A stretch of DNA of 64,000 bases from an uncultured Pseudomonadales bacterium (GTDB lineage: Bacteria > Pseudomonadota > Gammaproteobacteria > Pseudomonadales > UBA7239). The stretch spans positions 1,280 to 65,279 of the forward strand of contig CAYOEO010000005.1 in NCBI GenBank assembly GCA_964403125.1. Reading direction: 5' to 3'. Position numbers and translations under genes: made by a program. Positions within the stretch are counted from its first letter, which is position 1. Each line of letters starts with the position of its first letter. The notes under the pieces were generated by a model. It worked only from the letters and a program-made list of their open reading frames with translations, did no database searches and had not been told where the DNA came from. Below are positions 20,589 to 58,846 of this stretch, in pieces.

Positions 20589-20597
20589 GAGGTTGTT

Positions 20598-21434: not shown

Positions 21435-21451
21435 TTTACTGCAATTTTTCC

Positions 21452-21481
21452 TTCACAAAAGGGGTGCTTTTTCGCTAGAAT
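21452..21481 (+). promoter_or_regulatory. Candidate sigma-70 promoter for gltBD
   Basis: TTCACA (21452-21457), an 18-nt spacer and TAGAAT (21476-21481), each 5/6 to consensus, lie about 55 nt upstream of the gltB ATG. Confidence 0.35.
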
Positions 21482-21537
21482 CGCCCCCCCTGCCCCTCCC
21501 ACCAATGTTTTATCACTCTAGATAGCGGAGAAGAGTT

Positions 21538-26232: not shown

Positions 26233-26274
26233 CGATTATTCGGCAAAGCCTGATTTAGAGATAGAGGTTGTGTA

Positions 26275-27738: not shown

Positions 27739-27757
27739 AGCATCGCTAGCTTCCCCT

Positions 27758-27788
27758 AAAGGCCGCTGTTGCGGCCTTTATTTTTTTC
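27758..27788 (+). terminator. Rho-independent terminator after gltD
   Basis: A 9-bp stem (AAAGGCCGC / GCGGCCTTT) with loop TGTT is followed by ATTTTTTT. Confidence 0.8.
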
Positions 27789-27824
27789 AGACATTTTTTT
27801 AAACAATGCGCTGCGAGTTTCGTT

Positions 27825-30347: not shown

Positions 30348-30357
30348 TGTGAGTTGA

Positions 30358-30393
30358 ATGTATTTGAGGAGGAAGATCACTCCTCAAATACAT
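30358..30393. terminator. Perfect 14-bp inverted repeat between convergent genes (possible bidirectional terminator; no clear U-tract)
   Basis: ATGTATTTGAGGAG (30358-30371) pairs with CTCCTCAAATACAT (30380-30393) across an 8-nt loop. The right arm covers the last 4-5 codons of the minus-strand gene, and its stop codon lies in the loop. Confidence 0.4.
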
Positions 30394-43480: not shown

Positions 43481-44434
43481 ATGGCAGTGCAGCGTACTCA
43501 GATGGATAAGAGGGCTATGCAGAAAGAACAAAAAACAAAAAATGCGCCAGCCAGTTTTGACATTAGTCAGACGGTTTGTATTGATAACCCCAACGACGTG
43601 TGCGCTGCGGTCAAAGCGGCATTCCTTTCGCATTTTTCAGCGACAGACTTCGTTGTAATTGAAACGGCCTTCACCGACGTTGCCCGCATGTACCGTGGTG
43701 AGTCGGGTGAGTATCACGCCTGCGACACGGATTACCACGACTTGCGCCATATTTTGGATGTCACCCTAGCGGTCACTCGACTGCTCATCGGCTACGAGCG
43801 CGCGCATGCCAATTCGCCCGATGTTTTGGGCGTTGAGCGCGTGCAGATGGGCATTATTGCTGCGCTGTATCACGACATCGGTTATCTGCGTCACGTGAAA
43901 GACATGCGCCACAAACACGGTGCGGAGTACACCAAAACGCACGTCACGCGCGGCACGCAGTTTTTGGCGCGCTATTTGCCCACTGTCGGTAAGGCGAGTT
44001 GGGTGGCGCGGATGCGTCAACTGTTGCATTACACCGGCTATGAAAAAACCGTGCGCATGAAAGATGTACGCGATCACATGCTCGGTTGCTTATTGGGCAC
44101 AGGAGATTTGATTGCGCAAATGTCGGATCGCGCATATTTGGAACGCTGTCGCGACAGCCTGTACAACGAGTTTCGTATTGGCAATGTGCCCGCACCGAAA
44201 AGCGTGGATGGACGACCGTTTGAATCGCCAGCCGATCTGCTCAACCAAACGCCCGATTTTATGCGGGCGACGGTAGACAGCCGTTTGAACAAATTGTTCG
44301 GTGCGGTTTATCGCTATGCCGAACAATTTTTTGGCGGCGAAAACCTGTATATGTTGGGCTTGGAGCGCAACTGTAACTATTTGCAAAAATTGTTAGAAGA
44401 AAAACGTCTGTACCGATTGCAGCGCCGCATTTAG
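43481..44434 (+). CDS. HD-domain protein of unknown function
   Basis: YHDLRHILDV and AALYHDIGY supply the H...HD metal-binding pattern. The exact start is uncertain, with in-frame ATGs at 43481, 43502 and 43517. Confidence 0.55.
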   Translation: MAVQRTQMDKRAMQKEQKTKNAPASFDISQTVCIDNPNDVCAAVKAAFLSHFSATDFVVIETAFTDVARMYRGESGEYHACDTDYHDLRHILDVTLAVTRLLIGYERAHANSPDVLGVERVQMGIIAALYHDIGYLRHVKDMRHKHGAEYTKTHVTRGTQFLARYLPTVGKASWVARMRQLLHYTGYEKTVRMKDVRDHMLGCLLGTGDLIAQMSDRAYLERCRDSLYNEFRIGNVPAPKSVDGRPFESPADLLNQTPDFMRATVDSRLNKLFGAVYRYAEQFFGGENLYMLGLERNCNYLQKLLEEKRLYRLQRRI

Positions 44435-44487
44435 CCGTCCATAATTTTTGCTCCACTCAATCACTCGCAATCTTGCGGGAGGAAAAA

Positions 44488-45300
44488 ATGCTACGCAAAT
44501 TCATTCCTGTTCTTGTGATTCTCAGTCTGGCGGGATGCCAAACCACTGATCCCTATACCGGCGAAAGCAGAACCAGCAATACGGCAAAAGATGCAGGTAT
44601 TGGTGCATTGGCGGGCGCGGTATTGGGTGCGGCGGTGAGCCACAATAATCGTGGTAAAGGTGCCATGATTGGCGCTGCGGTGGGCGGTATGGCCGGCGGC
44701 GGTTATGGTTACTACCAAGACAAGCAAGAAGAAAAATTGCGTCAACAACTGGCTGGTACGGGTGTTGATGTGCAGCGCAACGGTGACAACATCAAATTGA
44801 TCATGCCGGGCAATGTCACTTTCCGCACAGGTAGCGCAGACATCCAACCCGATTTCTATCAAACGCTGAATTCTGTGAGTGGCTCGTTGCGAGAGTTTCC
44901 CGACAGCAATGTGCGCATCAGTGGTTACACTGACTCCACGGGTGACGCGATGCGCAATCAAATGCTGAGCGAGCAGCGTGCGAGCAGCGTGGCACGCTAT
45001 TTGGAGTCGCAAGGTGTTTCAGCATCGCGCTTTCAAGTGAGTGGTTTTGGCGCGCGTTATCCGATTGATAGTAATGCCACTGAATCCGGTCGTCAGGCGA
45101 ACCGTCGCGTCGAATTGGATGTGATTCCTATGAACCGTCAGCAAGGTCAAGGCGAGCCACAAAACTACAACAACGGCGGTGGTTATAACAACAATAGTGG
45201 TTATAACAACGGCGGCTACAACAATAACGGAGGCTATAACAATAACGGAGGCTATAACAATAGTGGTCGTTATAACGATGGCTCGAACCAAGGCTATTGA
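44488..45300 (+). CDS. OmpA-family lipoprotein with glycine-zipper segment (YiaD-like) and N/G/Y-rich C-terminal tail
   Basis: GGAGG lies 5 nt upstream of ATG 44488. The protein has lipobox LSLAGC, a glycine zipper (GIGALAGAVLGAAV ... GAAVGGMAGGG), an OmpA_C domain (FRTGSADI ... GYTDSTGD ... NQMLSEQRA ... NRRVEL) and a tail (GGYNNNSGYNNGGYNNNGGYNNNGGYNNSGRYN). Confidence 0.8.
   Translation: MLRKFIPVLVILSLAGCQTTDPYTGESRTSNTAKDAGIGALAGAVLGAAVSHNNRGKGAMIGAAVGGMAGGGYGYYQDKQEEKLRQQLAGTGVDVQRNGDNIKLIMPGNVTFRTGSADIQPDFYQTLNSVSGSLREFPDSNVRISGYTDSTGDAMRNQMLSEQRASSVARYLESQGVSASRFQVSGFGARYPIDSNATESGRQANRRVELDVIPMNRQQGQGEPQNYNNGGGYNNNSGYNNGGYNNNGGYNNNGGYNNSGRYNDGSNQGY
45223..45258 (+). repeat. Perfect 2 x 18-nt tandem repeat (aataacggaggctataac) within a longer degenerate repeat encoding the N/G/Y tail
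   Basis: Read directly from the DNA. Related degenerate units extend from about 45175 to 45280. Confidence 0.9.
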
Positions 45301-45316: not shown

Positions 45317-45339
45317 CAGGCGAGTGTTTAGCTCGCCTG
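45317..45339. terminator. 8-bp hairpin between convergent genes (possible bidirectional terminator)
   Basis: CAGGCGAG (45317-45324) pairs with CTCGCCTG (45332-45339) across a 7-nt loop that contains the stop codon of the minus-strand CheA gene. The U-tract is weak. Confidence 0.35.
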
Positions 45340-48255
45340 TGTTTCCAAACTATGCATCCACGACAGCGCATTATTTTGCGCGTACTGCTGCAAAAAATGG
45401 CTGTTCAAAATAAAAGCGAGTTCACCATTGCTGCGTACGGTTGCGCCGCTAATCGAAGGTGATTGACGCAAGTCTTTATGTAACTCGCGCACAAAAATCT
45501 TTTCTTTTCCAATGATGGCATCCACACAAATACCAATTTTATTTTTCTTTTGTCCGATGATAAGAATGGATGCTGCATGATTGGTTTCAACATGGCGAAA
45601 CTTGATCAGCGACGATGTGTTACCGAGTGCGGCGCCGCGTCTTAGCACTAAATCTTCTAAATGGAACACAGGAATCAGTGTGTCGCGCAACAGTAGTGCA
45701 GATTGCCCCATGATGTTTTGTATAAAAATATCAGCAGCAGAAAATATTTCATGCACGCGCGCTTGCGCCAGTGCGTAGACATTGCTTTCAGTCTGCATCA
45801 TCACTACATCTTGCAGTGCCGCAGATAGTGGCAGCGTCATGATGAAACGCGTGCCAAAGCCTGGCACGGTATGAACATCAATATTGCCGCCAATGTGTTG
45901 AATGCGCGTGATAACCACATCCATACCGACACCGCGTCCAGACGTTTCTGTGATGGCTTCTGCGGTAGAAAATCCAGGGAGAAAAATCAGTTGGCAAGTT
46001 TCTTGATCGGTCAAAATGTCGTGTTCTTGGATAAAACCTTTGCGAATCGCGCTCTCACGAATTTTGGGTAAATTGATGCCGCGACCATCGTCGGCAATTT
46101 CCAAAAGCAGTGTGCTGCCTTCTTGCGAAGCGGAAAGCACTAGTGAAGCCGCTTCATTTTTGCCGGTGGCGCTGCGATCATCAGGGTGCTCAATGCCGTG
46201 GTCGATACAGTTTCTGACGAGGTGAATCAGTGGCTCCATCAGCACGTCCACCATGCCTTTATCGATACAAACGCTGCCACCTTCAATCGCGAGGTTAATT
46301 TTTTTGCCTTGTGCCTCCGCCATTTTTTGCACAAGTTGCGGTATGCGATTGAAAACAGCGGAGACGGGGACGACGCGCAAGTCGAGTATGCGATTTTGCA
46401 TGACATCGAGCGATAAGCGCAGTTTTTCGTGGCTGGTTGCAATTTTCTTTTGCGCTTCGTGCAGTGTGTTGAGTGTGGTCCGCATCACTTCTGCAACCTG
46501 CGAGGTCAAGGGCTGATGACGATGGTCTTCTAGCCATTTTTTGCCTTGCATCAGCGCGTTTTCTACGACTGTGCTTTTCATTTCGTGTGAGAGTGCGTTG
46601 TACGCCATCAATAGTTCACCGGATTGCGCCATTAAATTTTCTAGCGTGATACTTTCTATCCGTAAGGTGGCGCTCGATGCGCCAGTTTGTTTTTGCTCGG
46701 GTTCTGTGCTGGATTTTTTGCCAATGTTGTTAGATAGCGCTTCTTTTTTGAGGATGATATTTTTAACAGTAATCGCATTTTTTACGACGCTGTTTTGATC
46801 GGCCTCTTTGGTGAAACTCTCTATGTCTTGTTGGAGAATAACGATAAAAACAAATAGAGATTTGCTAGTGTCTTTGTTGGTATCGCTAGGAAAAACAGAA
46901 TAGCTGTGCACCAATTGTCCTGATTTTTCCATTAGGGTAATAGCTAGCTCAAGCGTGTTGTTATCGCAATTTTCATCTATACCCACTTCAATAATCGTTT
47001 TGCCGTCTCCCGCTGCTGTATTGAGTTGAGTGATGGCATTGTTGGAGAGATGACGAAAGATGTGTGAAGGAATTGAGATGTTCTTGGCGAGTTGTTGGCG
47101 TGATGCTTCGCTGATTTCACCTAGCATGGCTTGCGCGATGCTGTCATCCAACTCGGCGATCCGATTTTTTAATGCTTGTGCGCTCGCTTCTGTTTCCCCG
47201 GCCTGTGTTTGTGCTGCAAAAGATATATCCGCAGCGCGACGCATGGCGTAGAACGCCGCTTGTCGATCGGGGATTTCATTGCGCTTGATGTAACGAAGAA
47301 TTTGTAACAAATAGCGAAATAATGCGGCTAATTGAGAATAGCCAAATAAATCAGCATTGGTGGTGAGTAACTTGAGTAATGTTTCGCAGTCGTTGATAGG
47401 TTCCAGCGAATTAGGATTTTCTTCGATAAGATCAAATAAATAATCCAGCCTTCCTGATAGCTGGGTAAAGTTGACAAACATGGCATCAAAGTAAGCGGTA
47501 TGCAGAATACTGGTACCGCAATCCACATGAAAATATTTTTCAAATAGTGTGATTCTGTGCAAAATTTCTGAAGCCAAACTGGCAGCGAGGCCTTGATCGG
47601 GTGGATTGCTGGCTTTGATGTATTGGCGTAGTAGGGTAGAAATCGCGGTAAAACCGAGCAGATTACAAATGCTGACTAATTTATTGAGTGAGCGTTTGAT
47701 TTTGGTCGGTTCTTGCTCAGGCATTAAACCCGCTACTAATTCTTCTTTGCATGCGCTGGCAAATTCATGCAGCTCGTCATCACTGAGCTGCATAGTAGAA
47801 AATAAACTGGTGTGTGTTGCTGTGCTGTTGTCGGAAGATTCTGTTTCATCCGGTGTGGCAGCGAGAGAAAACCCTTCTGATAATTGATAGAGCTGCGCGA
47901 CCAGTGCGGTATTTTCTGGCGGTGGATTGCCGCTGTTGCGCATCTGTTGCAGTTGCAACTTCAACCAATCAATACCAGCGAGCAGGGTGTTGATCGTTGT
48001 GGATTCAAGAGCCGTTTTGCCTTTGCGCACAAGGTCTAAATAATCTTCACTGGCGTGCGCCACTTGTTCCATGCTGTGAAAATCCATCATGGCGCAACTG
48101 CTTTTGATGGTATGAAAATCGCGAAACAGTTGATGGATGTCGGCGCTAGTTTCTGCGTCATTGGCAGCCAAGATAAACTCAAGGTTATCCAATTGCTCAG
48201 AAACTTCTGTAAAAAAAGCTTGCCAGAGATCGCTATTTTTCATAGCTGTGCACAC
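45328..48255 (-). CDS. cheA: CheA-type histidine kinase, long form (Hpt + two His-less Hpt-like modules + P2-like region + P3-P4-P5)
   Basis: Hpt FRDFHTIKSSCAMMDF, P3 ATLRIESITLENLMAQSGEL, N-box HLVRNCIDHGIE, G1 DDGRGI, F/G2 LPGFST ... SGRGVGMDVV and a C-terminal CheW-like domain are present. The start is either GTG 48255 or ATG 48243. Confidence 0.85.
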   Translation of the reverse strand: MCTAMKNSDLWQAFFTEVSEQLDNLEFILAANDAETSADIHQLFRDFHTIKSSCAMMDFHSMEQVAHASEDYLDLVRKGKTALESTTINTLLAGIDWLKLQLQQMRNSGNPPPENTALVAQLYQLSEGFSLAATPDETESSDNSTATHTSLFSTMQLSDDELHEFASACKEELVAGLMPEQEPTKIKRSLNKLVSICNLLGFTAISTLLRQYIKASNPPDQGLAASLASEILHRITLFEKYFHVDCGTSILHTAYFDAMFVNFTQLSGRLDYLFDLIEENPNSLEPINDCETLLKLLTTNADLFGYSQLAALFRYLLQILRYIKRNEIPDRQAAFYAMRRAADISFAAQTQAGETEASAQALKNRIAELDDSIAQAMLGEISEASRQQLAKNISIPSHIFRHLSNNAITQLNTAAGDGKTIIEVGIDENCDNNTLELAITLMEKSGQLVHSYSVFPSDTNKDTSKSLFVFIVILQQDIESFTKEADQNSVVKNAITVKNIILKKEALSNNIGKKSSTEPEQKQTGASSATLRIESITLENLMAQSGELLMAYNALSHEMKSTVVENALMQGKKWLEDHRHQPLTSQVAEVMRTTLNTLHEAQKKIATSHEKLRLSLDVMQNRILDLRVVPVSAVFNRIPQLVQKMAEAQGKKINLAIEGGSVCIDKGMVDVLMEPLIHLVRNCIDHGIEHPDDRSATGKNEAASLVLSASQEGSTLLLEIADDGRGINLPKIRESAIRKGFIQEHDILTDQETCQLIFLPGFSTAEAITETSGRGVGMDVVITRIQHIGGNIDVHTVPGFGTRFIMTLPLSAALQDVVMMQTESNVYALAQARVHEIFSAADIFIQNIMGQSALLLRDTLIPVFHLEDLVLRRGAALGNTSSLIKFRHVETNHAASILIIGQKKNKIGICVDAIIGKEKIFVRELHKDLRQSPSISGATVRSNGELAFILNSHFLQQYAQNNALSWMHSLETQAS

Positions 48256-48279
48256 ATAAAGGTTGAAGGCATCATGCGC

Positions 48280-49335
48280 TTAATCTCGGTTATTGAGCAA
48301 ACATTGTTGAATCAAATGCGGCATGTTTGTGTAAGGTGCCTGCCATTCAACGGCGCCGATTTCCATGGCCACGCGTGGCATACCATAAACCGCGCAAGTG
48401 GCTTGGTCTTGCCCGATAGTAACAGCACCCGCGCGGCGCATTTCTAGCAGTCCTGCTGCGCCATCTTCACCCATGCCGGTCAAAATAATACCGATAGCAC
48501 GTGCACCTAATTGCGCGGCAACAGAGCGAAACAACACATCGACAGAAGGGCGATGGCGATTCACTGGCGGGTCTTCTGTAACGCGTACGTGCAGCGTATT
48601 GTTGTGCTTTACCAGTGCCATATGCATGCCGCCAGGCGCAATCAACGCGCAGCCTTTACGCACCGCATCACCATCCACTGCTTCGCGCACTTCTATTGCG
48701 CAAATACTGTTCAATCGCTTGGCAAACAATTCGGTGAAATGTTTGGGCATATGCTGAGCAATCAGTACGCTGGGTGTTTCAGCGTCCATTTGTCGCAATA
48801 AATATTCCACTACGGTGGTGCCACCGGTAGAGCTGCCGATAGCGATGACAGACGCTGCGCGCCGCGTTTGCGGTGCAATAAAACTACTTGTAGGTGGTGC
48901 AACTTTTTTGGACGCATCCACAACTGCAGTGCGTGCAGTGGCGCAGGCCGCCGCTTTGATCGATTGCGTGATGGTGGTGGTGATGTCCTCCAAAAAAGAT
49001 TCAACACCGATATTGGGTTTGGCAATGATATCGACAGCACCTAGTGTGAGCGCATCCACCGAGGCTTTGGCGCCAGGGCCGACATGCGATGAACAAACTA
49101 CAAACGGCGTAGGGTGGTGTTCTCGAATGTATTTCAAGAAATCCAAACCGTGCATGCCTGGCATTTCTAAATCAGAAACAATGACATCTGGCCACTGTTT
49201 TTCCATTTTTTTTAACGCAATATCCGCCGTTGCTGCTACACCAATCACGTGAATGTCTGGATCTTTTTCCAAAATCATTTTTAGCACAGCGCGTACAGTG
49301 GCGGAATCATCCACTAAGAAAACTTTAATAGGCAT
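48280..49335 (-). CDS. cheB: Protein-glutamate methylesterase/glutaminase CheB (REC + methylesterase)
   Basis: Receiver VFLVDDS ... VSDLEMPGMHG ... IAKP is followed by catalytic motifs GSSTGGT (Ser), QHMPKHFT (His) and TGMGEDGA (Asp). Confidence 0.9.
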   Translation of the reverse strand: MPIKVFLVDDSATVRAVLKMILEKDPDIHVIGVAATADIALKKMEKQWPDVIVSDLEMPGMHGLDFLKYIREHHPTPFVVCSSHVGPGAKASVDALTLGAVDIIAKPNIGVESFLEDITTTITQSIKAAACATARTAVVDASKKVAPPTSSFIAPQTRRAASVIAIGSSTGGTTVVEYLLRQMDAETPSVLIAQHMPKHFTELFAKRLNSICAIEVREAVDGDAVRKGCALIAPGGMHMALVKHNNTLHVRVTEDPPVNRHRPSVDVLFRSVAAQLGARAIGIILTGMGEDGAAGLLEMRRAGAVTIGQDQATCAVYGMPRVAMEIGAVEWQAPYTNMPHLIQQCLLNNRD

Positions 49336-49789
49336 GATAATTTTCCTGCAAAACTGCTGTATTCAGTGTGCAATCTAGCCATTGTTTAGGATCGCTGAGA
49401 GATAGCGTCAGGGCATTATTTTTTTTATTGACATAAAGGCGATCGAAAAAAAGATCGAGATGTTTGTTAATGCCGTGTGCGTGATGCCATTCATGAGCCT
49501 GCGGCGTGATAAATCCTTCAATATTGTCGATAGCAATCACTGCTAGTGCTTGCAGCATTTTTTCGTCGCGCAGTGTTATGAGGTGTCCAGGCGGGCGGAG
49601 TATTTCTGCGGGTATGCCCAGTGCAATGCGCAAATCAATACAAGGAAGGGCATGCTCCTGCTGTGCGCAGGCTGATGCACTGTAAAAATCAATTTTAGTA
49701 ATACGGCGCAGCGGCAACATCAGTGCAAATGCACCACAATAAAAATGCAAATATTCTTCTTCAGTGTGCAGCATGACGGCTTTCTGCAT
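49325..49789 (-). CDS. Small divergent CheW-like protein (hypothetical)
   Basis: The 154-aa ORF overlaps both neighbours (29 nt with the upstream cheA stop, 11 nt with the cheB start). It has only a weak CheW-like pattern (FYCGAFALMLPLRRITKI ... LPCIDLRIALGIP). Confidence 0.45.
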   Translation of the reverse strand: MQKAVMLHTEEEYLHFYCGAFALMLPLRRITKIDFYSASACAQQEHALPCIDLRIALGIPAEILRPPGHLITLRDEKMLQALAVIAIDNIEGFITPQAHEWHHAHGINKHLDLFFDRLYVNKKNNALTLSLSDPKQWLDCTLNTAVLQENYHAY

Positions 49790-51560
49790 AGTGGCTGGTT
49801 AGGCGGAATAACCCTTCGCAGTCCAAAATAATAATGGCGCGCCCGTTGCCAAGTAGCGATACACCGCTAATACCGGGAATGTTGCGCAAATCCTGATGTG
49901 TGTGCCGCAAAAATAAATCCTGCCTTCCCAATGCGTCATCAACATGCAGTGCGATGCAATCCTCCTCATGTTGAAGAATAACCAGCAAATATTTCTGTGT
50001 GTGCTGTGTGTGGGATGCTGGGAGCTTGAGTAAGTGATTGAGCGAATAAACAGGTAGCGATTGCCCGCGCAAGTTGAGCATATTGACGCCATGGTTTTCT
50101 TGCAGCTCGTTGGGTGCAATGTCAAGAATTTCCATCACGTGTCGCGACGGAATGGCAAAGTATTGCTTGCTCGCTTGCACAAGTAAGGTATTTTGGATTG
50201 CCACTGTTTTAGGGATGCGCACAATAAATTGAGTGCCTACTTGTGGTGTGCTTGTTATTTGTATGGAACCTCCGATGCGCAGCAAGTGGTCGCGCACCAC
50301 ATCTAAACCAGTGGTGCGGTTAGGAATGTCGCTATTAAAACCATGAGAAAACAAAAAATTGAGCCAGAAAGCAGCATTTTCTCGATTCTTGCTGTCTAGC
50401 GCCGCCACATCGCAGAGGCTTTTGCTCAGCACTTTTTCACGGATAACGGTGTAGTCAATGCCGTGACCATCATCTTGGATATCGAGTTGTATCAGTTCAC
50501 CTATTTTGCTGGCGGTGATGCTAATTTTTCCCATTTCCGGTTTGTTGTTTTCTTTACGTTCCTCTGGCGATTCGATGCCATGATTGATGGCGTTGTGCAG
50601 TAAATGTATGAGAGGTTCTGAAATAACGTCGAGCATACTTTTGTCGATGCTAACTTCGCCGCCATCGGTTACCAGTTGCACTTGTTTGCCAAGAGACGAG
50701 GCCTTTTGTCGCACCACGCGTGGCAGGCGCGTAAAAATGGTTGAAAGAGGAATCGTGCGCAGCGCCAGCATGCCACTTTGGATATTGTCGTTAATGGCGC
50801 GAATTTGTGTATCTATATTCAGGAGTGCTTGCTTGTTATCAGAAAATGTTTGAAGAATAGTTTCAAATTCTTGATAGAGACTGTTGTAGTTATCTATGCA
50901 GTCTTTTTGCAGATTTTTCTGTAGTGCGTTGATATTTTGCGCGATGTCTTTTGATGCAGAAAGTGAATCGATCTGATGTTCAATTAAGATGAGTTGTGTA
51001 ATTTGTGTAACCAGTTCGTCTAGGCTGTTGCTGCTTATGCGCAGCGTATCAATTTCTAAAGCCTCTTTTTCTACGGTGAGGTCATGTGTTTTTTGTTCCC
51101 CAATTTCTTGTGGTGGGATTTCTGTCGGCTCTGGAGGCGGCGCTTCATCTTGCTGACGAAAGGGTGCTAGTTTTTTATGCAGTGCGTCATTAGTGGCGCG
51201 AGGGTATTGCCCTGGCGCTGCATCTGCTACTTGTTGCTTAATCCAATCAACAGATTCCAATAGTGCTTGCAATATTTCACGATGGGGAACGGTTTTAGAT
51301 TTTCTCAAGCCGTGCAAAATATCTTCGCAGGCGTTAGCAATTTCCATTGGCTCTTTGAAATCGACCATGGATAAATTGCTTTTGATGGTATGAAACTCGC
51401 GAAATAGTGCATCAACATCCGTTGCGCTTTCTTGGCTTGCGTTTTGTGCGGCGGCTTCAGTCACCAAGGCTTCCGCGGCATCCAACTTCTCACCCACTTC
51501 AGCGAGAAAAATAGGCCACAGTTGCTCCAGCATGCTGCTCACGGTGTGTGCTCTGCGCAA
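49761..51560 (-). CDS. cheA: CheA-type histidine kinase, short form (Hpt-P3-P4-P5, no P2) with degenerate G2 box
   Basis: Hpt FREFHTIKSNLSMVDF, P3 IDTLRISSNSLDELVTQITQL, N-box HLLHNAINHGIE and G1 DDGHGI are present, but F/G2 reads SHGFNS ... NRTTGLDVV in place of PGFST ... SGRGVGMDVV. A C-terminal CheW-like domain is present. The start is TTG 51560 or ATG 51533. Confidence 0.8.
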   Translation of the reverse strand: MRRAHTVSSMLEQLWPIFLAEVGEKLDAAEALVTEAAAQNASQESATDVDALFREFHTIKSNLSMVDFKEPMEIANACEDILHGLRKSKTVPHREILQALLESVDWIKQQVADAAPGQYPRATNDALHKKLAPFRQQDEAPPPEPTEIPPQEIGEQKTHDLTVEKEALEIDTLRISSNSLDELVTQITQLILIEHQIDSLSASKDIAQNINALQKNLQKDCIDNYNSLYQEFETILQTFSDNKQALLNIDTQIRAINDNIQSGMLALRTIPLSTIFTRLPRVVRQKASSLGKQVQLVTDGGEVSIDKSMLDVISEPLIHLLHNAINHGIESPEERKENNKPEMGKISITASKIGELIQLDIQDDGHGIDYTVIREKVLSKSLCDVAALDSKNRENAAFWLNFLFSHGFNSDIPNRTTGLDVVRDHLLRIGGSIQITSTPQVGTQFIVRIPKTVAIQNTLLVQASKQYFAIPSRHVMEILDIAPNELQENHGVNMLNLRGQSLPVYSLNHLLKLPASHTQHTQKYLLVILQHEEDCIALHVDDALGRQDLFLRHTHQDLRNIPGISGVSLLGNGRAIIILDCEGLFRLTSHYAESRHAAH

Positions 51561-51564
51561 CTAA

Positions 51565-51990
51565 TTAGAGGCGCTGATGAATAGCGTCGAGCAATTCGCG
51601 GCTTTTCTTTTCTTCGAAATCTAAGCTGAGTACACCGGAAGGTTTGGGAATAATGTCGGCGGCGCCCAGTTCCAGTGCTTCGTGTGCTTCACGGGAATCC
51701 AAGCGCGCCACGGATGAAATAATGATGACTTTGGCGCTGGTGATTAAGCGCGAACGGCGCAAAAACTCTATGCCATCCATGTTGGGCATTTCGATGTCTA
51801 ACAAAATGACATCCGGTGATAATTCAGTAACTTTTTCTAAAGCGATAACACCATCTTCTGCTTCGCCCACCACGGTGAGCGTTGGATCATTTTCTAAGAT
51901 GTTGCGAATGATGCGGCGCATGAGAAAAGAGTCATCAACAATCAGCACCTTCAAACTTGCGACGGGCATTTCTTGGCTTGCATTGTTCAT
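51565..51990 (-). CDS. Stand-alone receiver domain protein resembling the CheB N-terminal domain
   Basis: The 141-aa protein reads VLIVDDSFLMRRIIRNILENDPTLTVVGEAEDGVIALEKVTELSPDVILLDIEMPNMDGIEFL ... IISSV ... IPKP. This is collinear with CheB receiver domains, but no methylesterase domain follows. Confidence 0.8.
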   Translation of the reverse strand: MNNASQEMPVASLKVLIVDDSFLMRRIIRNILENDPTLTVVGEAEDGVIALEKVTELSPDVILLDIEMPNMDGIEFLRRSRLITSAKVIIISSVARLDSREAHEALELGAADIIPKPSGVLSLDFEEKKSRELLDAIHQRL

Positions 51991-52028
51991 GGTGTGTTCT
52001 CCAGAAAGATGTGCAAATTTTTAGCTCA

Positions 52029-53411
52029 CTACAGCGACTGTCGTTGACTGAACAAGTTGGGGTTAAGCAACGGGATGAGTTCTTCTTCCACGCGAGCAAT
52101 GCCGCTGAGCAGTCGTGTATCTGTAGTTGTTTCGCTGTGAATGCTGGACAGTGGGATGCGAATGATATGTTGTGCTGCTTCTACACAAATTGCCCAGTCT
52201 TGTGTTGTATCGCCGACGATGAGGTATTCATTGCGGCGTTGTTGCTGTTCCATCCTGAGAATACTTTCGATGGATAAAACTGGGATAACTTTGCCTTCAA
52301 CATTGATGGCGCCGCAGATGTTTTCTTTGTCGTCATCCAGTGGTGTCATTGGAAAGAAGGGCAGGATGCGTTTGATGTTGTGCAGCGGGATAACAAAAGG
52401 TTTTTGGCAGAGCGTAATTTTCAAAAAGCTTAGCGTTTCTTCTTTTTGTTCGCTGCGCTGTTCTGTGTGTTGTTTGGTATAAGGTGCAAGAAAACCAGCC
52501 AGCGCGTCACTGATAATTTGTCGTGGGCTCAGCAGCAGTGTCGTGATGTTTTCGTGAATAAAAAGACCGGATACCAGTTGATTGCCATCAACAACAGGTT
52601 GAAAACTATCAAAAGGAAATTTTTTAACGCCGATCAACTGGTTGATAAGTAAGCCGTAATGTATGCCGTCACGTTCTACGACAATTAACCGCGTGTGCTC
52701 GGTACTAGCAGCGTTAGGATTGATCAGTCGAGCCAAATCCATGACGGGAATCGTTTGTTGGCGCAACAAACAAAACCCTAGCAATCCGATGGGTGCATCG
52801 GGTATGGGTGTGTAGTCGCAAGCTTCTAAAATTTCTACGACACTTTGCAATTCAAAAGCATACTGTTCTTCTCCGTTGCTGACGACGAGACTAGCGATTG
52901 TAGTGTTGTCTTCTGCTTCGTGCTGATTGATGCGCTTTCCGAGTGTGCCGCTACCGCCATCGGGCAGAGTGTCTGACCGTATCAGTCCACCAATTTTTTG
53001 TGGGTCGAGAATGAAAATGGTTCGTTCTTTATGTAACGCTTCGCCTTGTAAAAGTTCTTGTGGAATGGGTGGCTGATCCGTTTGCAGAGGCTGCACTACC
53101 AGCGTGCAACGCTCTTGTGTTTGGTCAACGTGCAGTGCGCACAGCGCGCGTCCTGTTTCAATCAAAATCAGTTCACTGCGTTTGGCTGCGTTTGTTGTGC
53201 CGCACAGTGTTGCAAGGTCAACTTGCAGCGCGATAGTGCCATCTACATTGATTAGCCCTGCCACGCATTCAGGCACAAATGGAATGGGCGTAACTGGCAG
53301 CGTGGGTAGAATTTTTTGTATACACGAGATAGGCAGCGCAAATTGATGTGCGCTGCAGCCAATCAGCAAAAAAGACGTGTCTGTTGTATCAGTGTTTTTC
53401 ATAAATAACAC
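52029..53411 (-). CDS. Triple CheW-domain scaffold protein
   Basis: Three CheW-like segments appear in the 460-aa protein: FALPISCIQKILPTLPVTPIPFVPECVAGLINVDGTIALQVDLATL, YAFELQSVVEILEACDYTPIPDAPIGLLGFCLLRQQTIPVMDLARL and FVIPLHNIKRILPFFPMTPLDDDKENICGAINVEGKVIPVLSIESI. Confidence 0.75.
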   Translation of the reverse strand: MLFMKNTDTTDTSFLLIGCSAHQFALPISCIQKILPTLPVTPIPFVPECVAGLINVDGTIALQVDLATLCGTTNAAKRSELILIETGRALCALHVDQTQERCTLVVQPLQTDQPPIPQELLQGEALHKERTIFILDPQKIGGLIRSDTLPDGGSGTLGKRINQHEAEDNTTIASLVVSNGEEQYAFELQSVVEILEACDYTPIPDAPIGLLGFCLLRQQTIPVMDLARLINPNAASTEHTRLIVVERDGIHYGLLINQLIGVKKFPFDSFQPVVDGNQLVSGLFIHENITTLLLSPRQIISDALAGFLAPYTKQHTEQRSEQKEETLSFLKITLCQKPFVIPLHNIKRILPFFPMTPLDDDKENICGAINVEGKVIPVLSIESILRMEQQQRRNEYLIVGDTTQDWAICVEAAQHIIRIPLSSIHSETTTDTRLLSGIARVEEELIPLLNPNLFSQRQSL

Positions 53412-54300
53412 ATTTATTTTGTCGATTTTCGTGAAATAGATGTGGCACAGTCATGGTGTCCACCAAACTGAGCATCAGGCTGCCGCCGAGCTGTAAGGCG
53501 TGATGCAGCGATCGAATAATAATTTTTTGCGGTTCGCTGTCCATATAAATCAGTGCGTTGCGGCAGAAAACGATATCGAAATCGCGATGCGGCGGTGTGG
53601 CGTTCATCAAATTGTGTAAATCAAATTGCACATAGCGTCGCACGCTCTCTTTGATCTGCCATGTCTTTCTTCTGTTGTCATCGTCATGTACGAGATCAAA
53701 AAAACGCAGGTATGCCTGCGGGAATTGGCGAAAGGAAGTGAGACCTTCTTGGCGTTGTGTGTAAGTGCCTTTGCGCGCAATACGGATGGCTTGGCGTGAA
53801 ATATCTGAGCCTAAAATTTCCAGCTTCCAATCGGGCAGCAGTGTGATGTTGCCGCGCGTTGCTTCGTGTGCCACACCTAATCGTACCAGTGTGTTTAGCG
53901 TGAGTATGGCGAGTGTGTAAGCCTCTTCGCCTGTGGCGCAAGCGGCAGACCACAAAGTGATTTTTTTCTGACCCCTGTGCTGTTTTTTTTCGTGTACTAG
54001 TTTGGGAATCACATAATCTTCCAGCGCGTTTAAGTGCGCGCGCTCACGAAAAAAATAGGTTTCATGATTGGTTAAATCTTCCACCAAAGCGGATAACTGG
54101 CTTTTGCTGGCATCCATTTCCAAGGTGTTAAGAAACGCTGACAATTCCGTGGAGTTTTGAAAAATTCGTTCTAACTTGCGCTGAATTTGTGGCGATGCAC
54201 GAAAGCCAGCAAATTGCTTTAGTTGTAACATCAATTGCTCGACCATCCGCGTAGCGGCGGAGGGTCGAATCTCTGAGAGTGAGTTGCTGCTGTTGGCCAT
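53389..54300 (-). CDS. cheR: Chemotaxis protein methyltransferase CheR
   Basis: An N-terminal helical domain, the SAM-binding ITLWSAACATGEEAYTLAIL and FDIVFCRNALIYM are present in a 303-aa protein. Confidence 0.9.
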   Translation of the reverse strand: MANSSNSLSEIRPSAATRMVEQLMLQLKQFAGFRASPQIQRKLERIFQNSTELSAFLNTLEMDASKSQLSALVEDLTNHETYFFRERAHLNALEDYVIPKLVHEKKQHRGQKKITLWSAACATGEEAYTLAILTLNTLVRLGVAHEATRGNITLLPDWKLEILGSDISRQAIRIARKGTYTQRQEGLTSFRQFPQAYLRFFDLVHDDDNRRKTWQIKESVRRYVQFDLHNLMNATPPHRDFDIVFCRNALIYMDSEPQKIIIRSLHHALQLGGSLMLSLVDTMTVPHLFHENRQNKCVIYEKH

Positions 54301-54330
54301 GCCCTATCCCCTGATTGCTTACGCGGGGCG

Positions 54331-54807
54331 CTATTGCAGGCAGACCACCAGCGAGGCCTTGAATCCATTCCATGTGAATGGCACAACGCCGATATCGTAG
54401 TTGCGCGGGAAGTAGATGTGTTCCGGTCTGCCGGTGACAACCACCGGAACAGAAATCATGAAGCCGGAGCCCAGGATTTTTCTGGCGTTGCCAGAAACGG
54501 TATTGGTTATCTCGCCAATCACATCGTGAAATAAGCTTTCGTCGATTTCAGGCTCGCCCATTGCCAGCAGCACCTGCCCCAGCATTTCCTTGGTGGCGGT
54601 CAAATAAATAGAACCTTGTTTATCGCCACTGACACCGATGATACCGGTGTACTCGCTGGCGGGCGTGCCGTTACTTTCCGTGTGATAAGACTGCTTGATG
54701 TCCAAATCGCCACCGATATTGGTAGCAAAGTAATGGCGCAGGCTGTCAACAAAAATTTGCAGTTCAGCTTCTTTCATGGGCCTGGCTCTCCTGTCGGGCG
54801 GTATCAA
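54331..54807 (-). CDS. cheX: CheX-family CheY-P phosphatase
   Basis: The DVIGEITNTVSGNARKIL segment carries the CheC/CheX E-x-x-N active-site motif. The size is about 148-158 aa, and the alternative start ATG 54777 gives MKEAELQ. It lies directly downstream of cheY. Confidence 0.75.
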   Translation of the reverse strand: MIPPDRRARPMKEAELQIFVDSLRHYFATNIGGDLDIKQSYHTESNGTPASEYTGIIGVSGDKQGSIYLTATKEMLGQVLLAMGEPEIDESLFHDVIGEITNTVSGNARKILGSGFMISVPVVVTGRPEHIYFPRNYDIGVVPFTWNGFKASLVVCLQ

Positions 54808-55172
54808 CCCTGGGCTTCCTCAATCAATTCTTCCAGCGCCGCGTTGATTTGATCGTCGTCGAAGGGCTTGGTCAGAAAACCTTTGGCGCCATTCTTCATG
54901 GCTTGGATGGTGGTGGCTTTGTCTGAAAGCGAAGAAATCACCAAAATCAATACATCGGGCTTGATGGCGACTAGATGTTGCACACATTCCACGCCGTCCA
55001 TTTCGGGCATCGTGAGATCCATGGTGACGAGCTCAGGCAGTTCGCGTTTGAAGACTTCAACCGCCTCCACGCCGTTGCTAGCCGTCAAGAAATCCGTGAC
55101 TTGATCAAGGGTAATTGAACGCTGAATCTTGCGCTGCATGACCGTGGAATCGTCAACAATCAGCATTTTCAT
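54804..55172 (-). CDS. cheY: CheY-like single-domain response regulator
   Basis: The 122-aa protein has LIVDDS, VTMDLTMPEMDG, VISSL and LTKPF (the complete phosphoacceptor set). It is the first gene of the operon. Confidence 0.9.
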   Translation of the reverse strand: MKMLIVDDSTVMQRKIQRSITLDQVTDFLTASNGVEAVEVFKRELPELVTMDLTMPEMDGVECVQHLVAIKPDVLILVISSLSDKATTIQAMKNGAKGFLTKPFDDDQINAALEELIEEAQG

Positions 55173-55319
55173 GGAACATCCTCAAGTAGTGTTTGTATGC
55201 GGTCATGTTTTTACATAAACGCCAGTCTGTCAATGATTTTGCGATCTGTGATAACGAGAGTGGTTTGCATTGGTTTCAGGCGGTATCCTTGCCGCATGAA
55301 TGAGTGAGAGGTTGGATGC

Positions 55320-56957
55320 ATGGTGAAGGTGGCGATCAGTGACTTGATCGAAAATCAACTCCAGCAAGAGAAGCAGTTGGAGAAGTTTTTTCGTACGGCC
55401 ACGCCGCAATCGTTGAAGGCGCATTTGGCGGCTATGCCTGCGGGCGTGTCGGAGCAAATGGCGTACCTGAATGCTGTGCTCAAAGTGCTGAGCGAATTGG
55501 ATGTGCAGCCCGTGCAAGTGTTTTCACTGTTGGAAACCGTGCGCCCTGTGGTGTATGAAAAATTCACCATGCTGACCTCGCGCTTTTTAGGACGCTCAGC
55601 CGTGTTTCCTGCGCGTATTCAAGAGTTGTTGGGGCAAGCGGTGGCGTTGTTAAGCCACATGACTTCTTCGTATGACAATGTTGTCGAAGAGACGCGCGCA
55701 CAGGGCGATAAACAAGTGTTTATTTTGGGTGCAGCGATTCAACGCGCCATGGCAGATAAAGCATTTTTGCTGTACTGCTATCTGCAACTGTATTTGCCTG
55801 TGCCGCAGCAGTTGTGGCGACAATTCAACAAACTGTATTTGATTGCGTCCGACAATAAATTATTGATTCAGACCACGCCTGATCCGTTGGTGTTTCCGCG
55901 CAAACCACTCAATTTACGGCAAATTTATTTGTACGCAGTGATGATGGATTGTTCAGATACACCGCATTTGAATTGTGGTGATATTCGTACGCTGTCTGAA
56001 GCACTCAAGGATTGGGTGCCACAGATTACGATTGCGGAGAGTAAGCCTGACAAAGATGAAAATCCTTTGGTGGTGAATTTGGAAGCGCCATCGGGCGCCG
56101 TGTTCTACGCCGATTTAGGCAACAAATACAGTAGTAAATTAATTTTCTTGCAATTGGATAAATTTTTCGCGCACTTGAAAGGGCTGAAAAAATATTCTTT
56201 GCGCGTCAGCATCAGCGAAGAATGGCTGTTTGATAAACCCATGATTGAGCAGTTGCTGGATCATTGGATCGTGCATAAACCCAAATCGACAGATCGTGTG
56301 GAGTTGAATGAAGTTGTCGTCGCGGTGCTGGGTATTTTGCCCGTGCATTACTATCTCGCCGGTTTTCGCACGCCAGAGGCGCTGGTCGGTAGTTCTGTTT
56401 TTGCCGAAAAAGATCCCACAGGAAAACTATTGTATGGTGAATTGCCTACGGCATTTCGTGTGATGACTAGCACGCCGCCCAGCATGAAAATTGAGAAGCC
56501 GGAATACTCGTACGAAAAAGTTATCGCTGTAGATCAAAGCCCCGGCGGTTATTGCTTGGAGTGGGTGAGCGACGCGCAAGACGAGTTGGCTGTAGGCAAA
56601 ATCGTCAGCATTCGCCACAAAATGTCGCCGTATTGGAAGGTGGGTGAAATTGTTTCCATCACGCACACCGATGACAAAAAAGTGCGCACGGGTATCAATT
56701 TAATTAGCACAGAGGCGGTGCCAGTTGTTGCCCGTCTGCTGAATAAAATTGATTCTCTGCCCATTCTGCTGTGCCCAGCAGAAAAATCTTTGAACCGCAA
56801 AAGCGCAACAGCAGTTGTACCCAAATCAGTTTGCCAAATGGGCGAGAAATTGCAGATTGCGCAGCTCGGTAACACACGCACTATTCAGTTGATGCAGCCG
56901 ATCAAACGCAACGACAGTTGTATTCTGTTCGAGTGCGCGTATATCGCCACGGAATAA
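55320..56957 (+). CDS. Uncharacterised 545-aa protein; helical N-terminal two-thirds and possible split PilZ-like C-terminal beta-barrel
   Basis: It is a long uninterrupted ORF with GAGAGG upstream, divergent from the che operon. The C-terminal region contains KSTDRVELNEVVVAV (K-x-x-x-R followed by a beta strand) and, about 80 residues later, VDQSPGGYCLEW (D-x-S-x-x-G). The PilZ assignment is tentative. The confidence value refers to the coding call. Confidence 0.7.
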   Translation: MVKVAISDLIENQLQQEKQLEKFFRTATPQSLKAHLAAMPAGVSEQMAYLNAVLKVLSELDVQPVQVFSLLETVRPVVYEKFTMLTSRFLGRSAVFPARIQELLGQAVALLSHMTSSYDNVVEETRAQGDKQVFILGAAIQRAMADKAFLLYCYLQLYLPVPQQLWRQFNKLYLIASDNKLLIQTTPDPLVFPRKPLNLRQIYLYAVMMDCSDTPHLNCGDIRTLSEALKDWVPQITIAESKPDKDENPLVVNLEAPSGAVFYADLGNKYSSKLIFLQLDKFFAHLKGLKKYSLRVSISEEWLFDKPMIEQLLDHWIVHKPKSTDRVELNEVVVAVLGILPVHYYLAGFRTPEALVGSSVFAEKDPTGKLLYGELPTAFRVMTSTPPSMKIEKPEYSYEKVIAVDQSPGGYCLEWVSDAQDELAVGKIVSIRHKMSPYWKVGEIVSITHTDDKKVRTGINLISTEAVPVVARLLNKIDSLPILLCPAEKSLNRKSATAVVPKSVCQMGEKLQIAQLGNTRTIQLMQPIKRNDSCILFECAYIATE

Positions 56958-58759: not shown

Positions 58760-58846
58760 AAGACTTGCCCGTCAGGTGTTTCGGTAGTAAAAGGAACTTA
58801 TTGAAAATAAAAAGAATAAAGGCTCTGCTCGAGCAAGCGAGGCGTG

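Follow-up and report, generated by a model that had tools for sequence, protein, structure and literature searches.

Which receptors feed a chemosensory operon that holds no receptor gene, and what does such an operon control? These questions are raised by nine minus-strand ORFs in the 64-kb stretch of DNA that was analysed (hereafter the window). We consider it probable that they encode an accessory MCP-dependent Che pathway of an uncultured marine-type, Pseudomonadales/Cellvibrionales-type gammaproteobacterium, with the receptor encoded elsewhere, a kinase/pseudokinase pair and two regulator branches. A coupling of this pathway to type IV pili, to c-di-GMP or to both is likely.

When the ORF coordinates were checked and Pfam domains assigned, the nine ORFs were confirmed at 45328-55172 (Table 1), and their tight packing and domain content support a single compact chemosensory operon, as a preliminary description had proposed. 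From cheY to cheA_L, the spacing by longest-ORF starts is -4, +30, -23, +38, +4, -29, -11 and +24 nt. The gaps and overlaps claimed earlier match these values. However, the size of the overlaps depends on the chosen start codons, and some become smaller or disappear when the starts annotated at NCBI (CheW3 of 457 aa and CheA_L of 971 aa, versus 460 and 975 aa by longest ORF) or in relatives (CheX of 148 aa, versus 158 aa here) are taken. Two CheA paralogs and a CheX were found by Pfam as described. Three receiver domains (CheY, REC and CheB) were counted rather than four, and neither CheA contains one (Pfam; for CheA_L also the AlphaFold2 domain map). The flanks are a convergent OmpA-family lipoprotein gene and a divergent 545-aa gene, as stated before. 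The window also contains pilMNOPQ and c-di-GMP turnover genes; no flagellar gene was found in its 64 kb.

Table 1. Features of the operon and of its divergent flank
Feature	Position	Strand	Description and evidence
cheY	54804..55172	-	single-domain response regulator, 122 aa; Pfam Response_reg E 2e-25
cheX	54331..54807	-	CheC-family CheY-P phosphatase, 158 aa or 148 aa from Met11; Pfam CheX E 1e-18
cheR	53389..54300	-	MCP methyltransferase; Pfam CheR E 7e-43
cheW3	52029..53411	-	triple tandem CheW scaffold, 460 aa; Pfam CheW E 8.5e-65
REC	51565..51990	-	CheY6-type (CheB-receiver-like) single-domain regulator, 141 aa; Pfam Response_reg
cheA_S	49761..51560	-	predicted pseudokinase, 599 aa; Pfam Hpt-HATPase_c-CheW
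cheW'	49325..49789	-	divergent single CheW-fold protein, 154 aa; family profile comparison
cheB	48280..49335	-	receiver + methylesterase; Pfam REC+CheB_methylest; NCBIfam CheB
cheA_L	45328..48255	-	catalytically intact CheA by motifs, 975 aa; Pfam Hpt-HATPase_c-CheW
fimW-like gene	55320..56957	+	545 aa, divergent from cheY; FimW_N + YcgR-like PilZ double barrel
control region cheY/fimW-like	55173..55319	.	147 nt, divergent; motifs conserved across seven loci

The three CheW domains of CheW3, a family with more than 100 full-length representatives, match one another at 98-99 % hhalign probability. CheW' alone falls below significance (Pfam CheW E 0.014) and its relatives match Pfam CheW weakly, but its family profile aligned with CheW3 domain 2 (hhalign 94 %, E 1e-7, 130 columns). 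Four CheW-type domains (3+1) thus lie outside the kinases, an unusual number as had been noted, though not the five claimed. The adaptation module is complete, as described: the SAM-binding motif WSAACATGEEAYT is present in CheR, and CheB (NCBIfam CheB 385.9 bits; cut-off 293) has catalytic Ser/His/Asp residues that align with 1a2o. Because both enzymes are intact and conserved (75-85 % identity among related loci), a methyl-accepting substrate of the usual kind is implied.

A tblastn search with the signalling domain of Tsr, together with a regex for the hairpin, detected no MCP signalling domain in the operon, its flanks or the rest of the 64-kb window, in agreement with the preliminary description; the flanking regions of about 10 same-clade loci also had none. 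The same type of search readily picks up the MCPs of related loci. When the gene order was searched for in other genomes, orthologous operons with canonical transmembrane MCPs were found. In loci L020 and L032, whose genes otherwise follow the order seen here, cheW' and cheB are separated by a gene for a dCache_1-HAMP-MCPsignal protein; L015 carries a 2-TM MCP at the 5' end, ahead of cheY; and in the simpler core operons of L012-L014 an MCP precedes cheR. With their two TM helices and periplasmic sensor domains, the MCPs of these relatives speak against a cytoplasmic array. The MCPs of L015 and L020 show a symmetric deletion of one heptad per arm relative to Tsr and were therefore assigned to the 34H class; type D relatives have 36H-like receptors. 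Since homologous operons of the same order hold a canonical MCP, its absence here reflects where the gene lies in one clade, and the earlier claim of a missing receptor with an unknown methylation substrate is not sustained. Many characterised che clusters have no MCP gene, for example the main flagellar clusters of P. aeruginosa and V. cholerae, so the premise that characterised pathways encode an MCP in or next to the cluster was too strong. The analysis covered 64 kb of this genome, and the receptor is presumably encoded outside that stretch.

By their motifs, the two CheAs are a live/dead pair, CheA_L live and CheA_S dead. In CheA_L the N, G1, F and G2 boxes are all intact, and the AlphaFold2 model (pLDDT 76.9) comprises P1, two extra His-less helical bundles, a P2-like domain and P3-P4-P5. 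Its P1 shows no greater similarity to the P1 of CheA3 than to that of E. coli CheA. CheA_S, a predicted pseudokinase, keeps the P1 histidine and P5 and has a degenerate ATP lid: the F and G2 boxes are lost, with NRTTGLD replacing GRGVGMD. The N box and G1 are retained and may still allow residual nucleotide binding. The same loss of F and G2, with the N box, G1 and the P1 histidine kept, was observed in CheA_S of all 12 type A/B loci (12/12), each with an intact partner CheA_L; in L015 the kinase states are swapped between the two proteins.

Two stand-alone regulators are encoded. The closest solved structures to CheY are the archaeal and Thermotoga CheY proteins; its identity across type A relatives is 94-97 %, compared with only about 61 % for CheW3. 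CheX (PDB match 3hm4, E 5e-10) carries the active-site motif DxxxExxN as DVIGEITN and is 92-96 % identical in relatives. REC, whose top NCBIfam match is the CheB N-terminus, shares with R. sphaeroides CheY6 47.9 % identity over 121 aa (3kyj_B, E 3e-26) and a KPSGxxSxDxEEK tail; no other protein of the operon is as well conserved between distant operon types.

The 545-aa neighbour, previously called unknown, has relatives with a precomputed Pfam FimW_N domain in all 20 cases. Its AlphaFold2 model (pLDDT 81.7) consists of a helical FimW_N and a C-terminal YcgR-like PilZ double beta-barrel; the top Foldseek matches were MrkH, YcgR, PlzD, PlzA and MotI, at marginal E-values (1e-3 to 5e-2). The DxSxxG motif is conserved and KxxxR/RxxxR is present, reading KxxxR in the che-linked proteins of types A and B. 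Because of this substitution, and because the FimW_C model did not match the che-linked proteins, c-di-GMP binding is putative. Linkage of the gene to the operon takes three forms: divergent from cheY in the window clade (about 10 loci), inside the operon between cheX and cheR (L015), and convergent after cheA_L (L020 and L032). Synteny inside the window clade alone could reflect relatedness, and the linkage rests on the three independent arrangements only. CheY, CheX, the FimW-like gene and CheA_S are jointly present in types A-C and jointly absent in type D, and among loci whose scaffolds share 40-68 % identity, CheY, CheX and the FimW-like protein share 92-97 %. We propose that the FimW-like protein is a partner or effector of the che operon. 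With this conserved partner, two single-domain regulators that count as outputs, and MCPs in relatives' operons, the receptor-less and output-less look is only apparent. In the control region, a TTGACA box and the Shine-Dalgarno sequence AGGA are conserved across seven loci; it matched no Rfam family, and no sigma-28 or sigma-54 consensus was seen in it by eye.

These observations suggest the following pathway. The receptors would be transmembrane MCPs encoded elsewhere in the genome, probably 34H in length class; they would nucleate an array containing CheW3, CheW' and the P5 domains of the two CheAs, with CheR and CheB adapting it. CheA_L would be the working kinase, and CheA_S may be phosphorylated in trans via its P1, acting as a phosphotransfer or phosphatase partner like R. 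sphaeroides CheA3 with CheA4, the precedent for a live/dead pair (PMC10782961, PMC6829392). One putative output branch is the CheY6-type regulator, which belongs to the ancestral core and may address the flagellar motor. The other would be the classical CheY reset by CheX, a pair that always accompanies the FimW-family PilZ-type gene. In P. aeruginosa, FimW acts in pilus assembly as a c-di-GMP effector (PMC10212136, PMC12564702). The FimW-like protein would probably integrate CheY~P and c-di-GMP to control the type IV pilus or another polar surface behaviour; the pilMNOPQ and c-di-GMP turnover genes of the window are supporting context for this reading.

A less likely alternative is that the accessory pathway is purely flagellar, along the lines of R. 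sphaeroides CheOp3. The CheY6-like regulator would then bind FliM, CheY and CheX would serve as competitor or phosphate sink, and the fimW-like gene would be merely a conserved neighbour, at most a minor modulator. The identity of REC to motor-stopping CheY6 and its conservation over all operon types fit this reading, as do the resemblance of the kinase pair to CheA4/CheA3 (PMC10782961), the core type D operons entirely without fimW-like, and the classical CheY that usually accompanies CheY6-type regulators (PMC2829493). Against it, the fimW-like gene strictly co-occurs with cheY-cheX, lies in-operon in L015 and is kept through two further rearrangements; the window holds pilus rather than flagellar genes; and, as weak evidence, no sigma-28-like promoter was seen upstream.

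It is unlikely that the FimW-like protein acts upstream, as a MapZ-style c-di-GMP-dependent modulator of the array or CheR that tunes methylation or kinase output. The target of MapZ in P. aeruginosa is CheR1, and in L015 the fimW-like gene is directly upstream of cheR. The PilZ-type fold and its motifs, the GGDEF/EAL genes flanking distant versions of the operon, and the listing of MapZ among PilZ proteins regulating motor switching (PMC12564702) also agree with such a role. However, MapZ is a single-domain protein whereas the FimW-like protein has 545 aa and two parts, and its presence co-varies with CheY/CheX and not with CheR, which type D has without it. Very improbable is the original reading, in which a cytoplasmic array is complete in itself, lacks both an MCP and an output, and has an unknown methylation substrate: it agrees with the lack of MCP domains in the window and same-clade flanks, but conflicts with the transmembrane MCPs of orthologous operons, the substrate implied by CheR and CheB, and the two regulators with their linked effector-like gene. 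We find it hardly credible that the operon is a non-functional remnant decaying after MCP gene loss. Although the MCP gene is missing relative to type B and the kinase domain of one CheA is degenerate, none of the nine ORFs is disrupted, either here or in about 10 related loci whose CheW3 identities span 39-66 %, catalytic motifs are kept, CheY and CheX are 92-97 % identical, and the cheA_S degeneracy is old and conserved, unlike random decay.

The accessory pathway that we favour can be compared with several known systems. Myxococcus Dif and Pseudomonas Pil-Chp and Wsp are non-flagellar pathways in which a Che-like core is tied to surface behaviour; in Dif, a CheY (DifD) is partnered by a CheC-family phosphatase (DifG), and the Pil-Chp CheA carries several Hpt-like domains. 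Unlike these systems, the operon encodes neither a CheA-REC hybrid nor a GGDEF response regulator; unlike Pil-Chp, it has no pilJ-type MCP and, by position, no pilG or pilH, and the extra CheA_L bundles have no phospho-accepting histidine. The F8 class (R. leguminosarum Che2, R. sphaeroides CheOp2, P. syringae cluster II) is similar by receptor length, since the relatives' 2-TM receptors belong to the minor 34H class assigned to F8 in the literature (PMC11253619, PMC7184735), and F8 reaches its highest prevalence in Gammaproteobacteria (bioRxiv 10.64898/2026.05.11.724241). However, the Che2 order cheY-cheA-cheW-mcr genes-cheW-cheR-cheB (PMC7617929) was not seen here, and descriptions of F8 mention neither a second CheA nor a triple CheW, a CheX or a FimW-like gene.

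The 545-aa neighbour, whose relatives have FimW_N in common with P. aeruginosa FimW (PA4958; c-di-GMP effector, type IV pilus assembly), aligns full-length with a FimW_N+FimW_C protein at 31.5 % identity and has the PilZ-type double barrel and DxSxxG. It differs in the unmatched FimW_C and in KxxxR for RxxxR in the window clade, and c-di-GMP binding and a pilus role are putative here. The one canonical FimW_N+FimW_C relative examined (L016) lies away from this operon type, and no mention of a FimW linked to a che operon was noticed in two reviews (PMC10212136, PMC12564702), consulted outside a dedicated search.

Another of the closest known systems is R. (Cereibacter) sphaeroides CheOp3 (CheA3/CheA4, CheY6, CheR3, CheB2, CheW4, TlpT). 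Unlike in CheOp3, both CheAs keep P1 and P3-P5 (CheA4 is without P1), the identity of the dead paralog varies between lineages, a triple CheW serves as scaffold, the operon is extended by a classical CheY, CheX and the FimW-like gene, ppfA and tlpT are absent, and the relatives' MCPs are transmembrane rather than cytoplasmic. As in CheOp3, the operon has two cheA genes, one with a non-functional kinase domain, a phosphorylatable P1 and P5, and a CheY6-type regulator gene directly upstream of a cheA. The modelled CheA_L, with P1, two His-less bundles and a P2-like domain, likewise resembles the CheA3 layout according to Berry et al. (PMC10782961, PMC6829392, PMC2829493).

The nine minus-strand ORFs reported earlier between positions 45328 and 55172 of the window were all recovered in the ORF listing. 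When the longest-ORF starts were used, their junctions (-4, +30, -23, +38, +4, -29, -11 and +24 nt) equalled the values previously given. Other annotators place some starts later (457 aa for CheW3, the protein with three CheW domains, 971 aa for CheA_L, the longer CheA, and 148 aa for CheX in relatives), so some of the "overlaps" vary with the chosen start. The tight gene packing holds whichever start is chosen. Pfam and NCBIfam show the kinase CheA, the coupling protein CheW and a regulator of the CheY type to be co-encoded, which is the core of a general Che pathway. The Ser/His/Asp residues of CheB are in register with 1a2o (S. typhimurium CheB), and the SAM motif in CheR and the DxxxExxN motif in CheX were also observed. 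Judged by these motifs, the adaptation enzymes CheR and CheB are predicted to have intact active sites. The domain counts of the preliminary description had to be lowered, as three receiver domains (not four) were counted operon-wide and four CheW domains (not five) outside the kinases.

Features of the window and of related loci, with the operon products in gene order (CheA_S, shorter CheA; CheW', divergent CheW-fold protein; REC, stand-alone receiver)
Locus	Position	Strand	Feature	Length and annotation
Window		minus	CheY	122 aa; Pfam/NCBIfam
Window		minus	CheX	158 aa (longest ORF); Pfam/NCBIfam
Window		minus	CheR	303 aa; Pfam/NCBIfam
Window		minus	CheW3	460 aa, three CheW domains; Pfam/NCBIfam
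Window		minus	REC	141 aa, stand-alone receiver; Pfam/NCBIfam
Window		minus	CheA_S	599 aa; Hpt, HATPase_c, CheW (Pfam/NCBIfam)
Window		minus	CheW'	154-aa ORF
Window		minus	CheB	351 aa; score above NCBIfam cut-off
Window		minus	CheA_L	975 aa; Hpt, HATPase_c, CheW (Pfam/NCBIfam)
Window	55320-56957	plus	FimW-like protein	545 aa; divergent from cheY
Window	8-1932, 9907-10425, 43481-44434		Among several ORFs	no Pfam family
Window	1934-4774 and 5770-8004		Hybrid sensor kinase (minus) beside cysteine synthase and RelA/SpoT-family (p)ppGpp enzyme	kinase 946 aa; sCache_4-HisKA-HATPase-REC-Hpt
Window	11173-18900		ponA (minus) divergent from complete pilM-pilN-pilO-pilP-pilQ operon, then aroK, aroB	ponA: PBP1A
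Window	28980-32485		Adjoining c-di-GMP turnover genes: HD-GYP-like (plus) and PAS-GGDEF-EAL (minus)	HD-GYP-like: DUF3391+HD_5; PAS-GGDEF-EAL: 702 aa
Window	35960-39804		MprF-like lysyl-phosphatidylglycerol synthase, then VirJ-family protein	synthase 847 aa
Window	44473-45300		OmpA-family lipoprotein, convergent	glycine-zipper + OmpA; low-complexity N/G/Y-rich tail (GGYNNN repeats)
Window	58844-61552		FG-GAP / thrombospondin type 3 repeat protein between recJ and ribE	902 aa
L014	314-2494 and 13320-14390		7TMR-DISM GGDEF-EAL protein and EAL protein, one on each side of the operon
L015	12820-13755		PAS-GGDEF gene directly downstream of the operon
L016	1-11689		Sole canonical FimW_N+FimW_C relative found, downstream (by about 7 kb) of another type of che cluster; small PilZ gene close by	cluster: MCP-CheR-CheD-CheB-STAS-REC/SpoIIE
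L030 (Methylobacterium currus plasmid)	145877-165223		che cluster with CheW-annotated protein, ParA-family gene, and MCP matching the signalling domain twice, separately	522 aa; 89% of triple-CheW query, 22.5% identity
L031 (Marinitoga okinawensis plasmid pMO1, 28 kb)	13364-28242		CheW-annotated protein adjoining GGDEF cyclase, two MCPs and HD-domain c-di-GMP phosphodiesterase; CheA annotation absent within the 15-kb stretch shown	435 aa; 92% of triple-CheW query, 20.6% identity

When the entire 64-kb window was searched using tblastn, the MCP signalling domain was absent, in agreement with what had been described for the operon and its flanks. Among the related loci compared, four arrangements of the same system (types A to D) were observed; a metagenome scan added few further long loci. 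Canonical hairpins together with two TM helices are seen in the MCPs of the relatives, and it is for this reason that we consider ordinary transmembrane receptors to serve the system. Those of types B and C (L020 and L015, respectively) carry a symmetric one-heptad deletion per arm compared with Tsr, which corresponds to 34H, and those of type D are 36H-like. The window clade keeps no receptor gene in the operon, and we infer that its receptor is located elsewhere in the genome. The "no receptor, no output" headline of the preliminary description is largely explained away as an artefact of local context. An MCP remnant was also considered and not found: cheW' overlaps cheB by 11 nt, and the tblastn result was negative.

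Arrangements of the system in the window and in related loci from other genomes and metagenomes (L labels)
Type	Loci	Gene order	Receptor and other features
A	Window, L002, L006-L009, L011, L023, L024, L026	fimW-like (divergent) / cheY-cheX-cheR-cheW3-REC-cheA_S-cheW'-cheB-cheA_L	MCP absent
B	L020, L032	type A order with MCP between cheW' and cheB	727-733-aa dCache_1-HAMP-MCP; fimW-like convergent after cheA_L
C	L015/L028	MCP-cheY-cheX-fimW-like-cheR-cheW3-REC-cheA_S-cheB-cheA_L-PAS/GGDEF	one strand throughout
D	L012-L014, L010	MCP-cheR-cheW3-cheB-REC-cheA_L-cheW'	simpler core without cheY, cheX, fimW-like and cheA_S

The two CheA paralogs were compared by alignment and motif census. In types A and B, the N, G1, F and G2 boxes of CheA_L are all intact. 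The F and G2 boxes of CheA_S are lost in 12 of 12 sequences (NRTTGLD replaces GRGVGMD), and in L005 the entire lid is gone; the P1 histidine motif and P5 are kept in the same 12. Since the G2-box glycines are required for CheA autophosphorylation, the paralog that has lost this box is a predicted pseudokinase, which may still be phosphorylatable in trans. The situation is reversed in type C, where CheA_S is intact and CheA_L has neither lid nor N box. The sole CheA of type D is intact.

An AF2 model of CheA_L (pLDDT 76.9) consists of P1, two extra four-helix bundles without His, an alpha/beta P2-like domain, P3, P4 and P5. Pfam recorded one Hpt in CheA_L, and its P1 carries the conserved His. 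When the extra bundles were tried as Hpt domains using hhalign, the motif positions were in register and the match to P1 was not significant; they can be called Hpt-like only tentatively. No receiver was found on either CheA by Pfam, or in the AF2 model of CheA_L.

The divergent neighbour of cheY had been considered an "unknown" protein, a view that we revised because its relatives carry FimW_N. Every one of the 20 relatives (52-94% identity, plus two at 29-33%) had a precomputed Pfam FimW_N record (PF27104). A Pfam version without the PF27104 model gave zero matches for the 545-aa protein, as did a PDB sequence search. In its AF2 model (pLDDT 81.7), the N-terminal half is helical and two beta-barrels form the C-terminal part, and the best PDB matches of the model were the PilZN-PilZ c-di-GMP receptors MrkH, YcgR, PlzD, PlzA and MotI (E-values of 1e-3 to 5e-2). 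FimW_C was not recorded for the che-linked FimW-like proteins in the precomputed Pfam data of the relatives. The D/NxSxxG motif is invariant (as DxSxxG) among the FimW-like proteins compared, and RxxxR is kept in L015 and in the canonical FimW_N+FimW_C relative, with KxxxR in types A and B. [quoted passage not shown]

The fimW-like gene stays linked to the operon through three arrangements, and its presence co-varies strictly with cheY-cheX among the loci compared. In relatives, the identities are 92-94% for the FimW-like protein, 94-97% for CheY and 92-96% for CheX, compared with approximately 61% for CheW3, 62% for CheA_S, 39-45% for CheW' and 84-88% for RecJ. The window also contains pilMNOPQ and two c-di-GMP turnover genes, one of the PAS-GGDEF-EAL and one of the HD-GYP-like type; the pilMNOPQ operon is complete, so the organism possesses type IV pilus machinery. 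It is because of this linkage, the co-variation with cheY-cheX, the exceptional conservation and the pil and c-di-GMP genes in the window that a functional link between the fimW-like gene and the operon is argued. Genes for c-di-GMP turnover flank distant versions of the operon as well (L014 and L015); the PAS-GGDEF protein of L015 has no REC domain. These flanks hint at a connection between the core system and c-di-GMP also where the fimW-like gene is missing.

REC shared 47.9% identity with R. sphaeroides CheY6 (3kyj_B) over 121 aa (E-value 3e-26) and ranks in similarity beside CheB receiver domains, well above ordinary CheYs. A KPSGxxSxDxEEK tail is common to REC and CheY6, and no aromatic residue is present at the Y106 position of REC. 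Between distant types, REC is the best-conserved component (61-77% identity, compared with 26-47% for CheA_L). In R. sphaeroides, CheY6 is the regulator that stops the motor, and a classical CheY usually accompanies it (PMC2829493, PMC6829392). CheW' alone was below Pfam significance (E-value 0.014), and a profile of its homologues matched the CheW domain with an hhalign probability of 94%.

An exhaustive CheW3 profile search yielded 242 representatives at E-values of 1e-30 or lower, more than 100 of which are full-length and collinear (approximately 450-510 aa). The sampled representatives came almost throughout from metagenomes; the named ones were a Gammaproteobacteria MAG and the BD1-7 clade. 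The triple-CheW scaffold is thus not rare and is common in uncultured gammaproteobacteria. Plasmid matches to CheW3 were rejected as the same system, being only distant, putatively multi-CheW clusters of Methylobacterium and Marinitoga. The Methylobacterium cluster resembles cytoplasmic-array systems and is only distant kin of the window operon.

Nearly all homologues came from uncultured Pseudomonadales/Cellvibrionales MAGs and from metagenomes. The flanks are of a housekeeping type: on one side lie dapA, bamC, a gene of the MBL fold, purC and a gene of the OmpA family, on the other recJ, ribE and ribD. Horizontal transfer was ruled out, as the GC content of the operon equals that of its surroundings and the flanking synteny (recJ / fimW-like / che / ompA / purC) persists even in relatives whose CheW3 is only 39% identical. 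The operon is a stable chromosomal locus and no island. An Rfam search of the window, including the cheY/fimW-like intergenic region, detected neither riboswitches nor RNAs of other kinds, and promoter and terminator scans performed no better than shuffles.

Some neighbours differ from those of the relatives. The 902-aa repeat protein looks like a lineage-specific insertion, because in the relatives compared, L002 and the P0007 contig, ribE comes directly after recJ. The tail of the OmpA-family lipoprotein is specific to this genome, because the relatives' matches end at approximately residue 222-226. The gene that separates purC from the OmpA-like gene (317 aa) has no Pfam family and is conserved in relatives, where its only match is a faint one to Npun_R2479.

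The system operates along the lines of known Che pathways. In the model that we consider most likely, it would form an MCP-dependent array with a receptor, probably of the 34H class, encoded elsewhere in the genome. The baseplate would consist of CheW3, CheW' and two P5 domains, with CheR and CheB responsible for adaptation. CheA_L would be the kinase and CheA_S the partner phosphorylated in trans, and two regulator branches may follow, one through the CheY6-like REC and the other through CheY/CheX, which would be coupled to the PilZ protein of FimW-like type. The fullest form of this model is possible and in our judgement rather unlikely: phospho-CheY would feed directly into a FimW-family c-di-GMP receptor, so that chemoreceptor and c-di-GMP signals converge on one effector that governs type IV pili or surface behaviour at the pole, within a triple-CheW array driven by an obligate CheA pair of kinase and pseudokinase, the two having exchanged roles between lineages. 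If the model holds, a second, independently arisen CheA kinase/pseudokinase pair would be at hand, and the reciprocal loss between lineages would make the evolutionary logic of such pairs testable. The operon is a genetically defined candidate link from a CheY/CheX phosphorelay to a FimW-type c-di-GMP effector, and the triple CheW, a structurally unexplored scaffold, should alter baseplate stoichiometry. We regard the locus as still moderately interesting for its CheA pair with reciprocal pseudokinases and for the link to FimW. In the literature searched, neither this gene set nor a Che operon linked to FimW was found described, and a route from a Che phosphorelay to a FimW-type c-di-GMP effector was not found for any chemosensory class.

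The main rival explanation is a purely flagellar role like that of R. sphaeroides CheOp3, with the fimW-like gene as an incidental neighbour. As in CheOp3, two CheAs are encoded in one operon, one of which is, at the motif level, predicted to be non-autophosphorylating with P1 and P5, and a CheY6-type regulator is present. The domain layout of CheA_L in the model also resembles the architecture of CheA3 derived by Berry et al. (PMC10782961), who termed the CheA3/CheA4 split kinase a "unique case" (2023). However, the partner kinase in CheOp3 has no P1 (P3-P4-P5 only) whereas CheA_L keeps it, and the cytoplasmic receptor TlpT and the ParA-like PpfA are missing from the window and related loci. 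An incidental position of the fimW-like gene also has to be weighed against its linkage through three arrangements.

The system was also compared with other chemosensory classes. Like F8 systems, relatives L015 and L020 have 34H two-TM receptors (PMC11253619, PMC7184735), and the receptors of the type D relatives are 36H-like. Unlike here, the F8 example R. leguminosarum Che2 has a single CheA and the order cheY-cheA-cheW-(mcp)-cheW-cheR-cheB (PMC7617929), which may not define F8. F4 CheAs are reported to have three Hpt domains (PMC10782961). In contrast to Tfp (Pil-Chp) systems, CheA has neither several Hpt domains with His nor a receiver at its C-terminus, and in contrast to Wsp-type ACF systems there is no REC-GGDEF regulator in the operon and no CheA-REC hybrid. 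The system is neither Tfp- nor Wsp-type, and it departs from the defining features of CheOp3 and of the F8 example compared.
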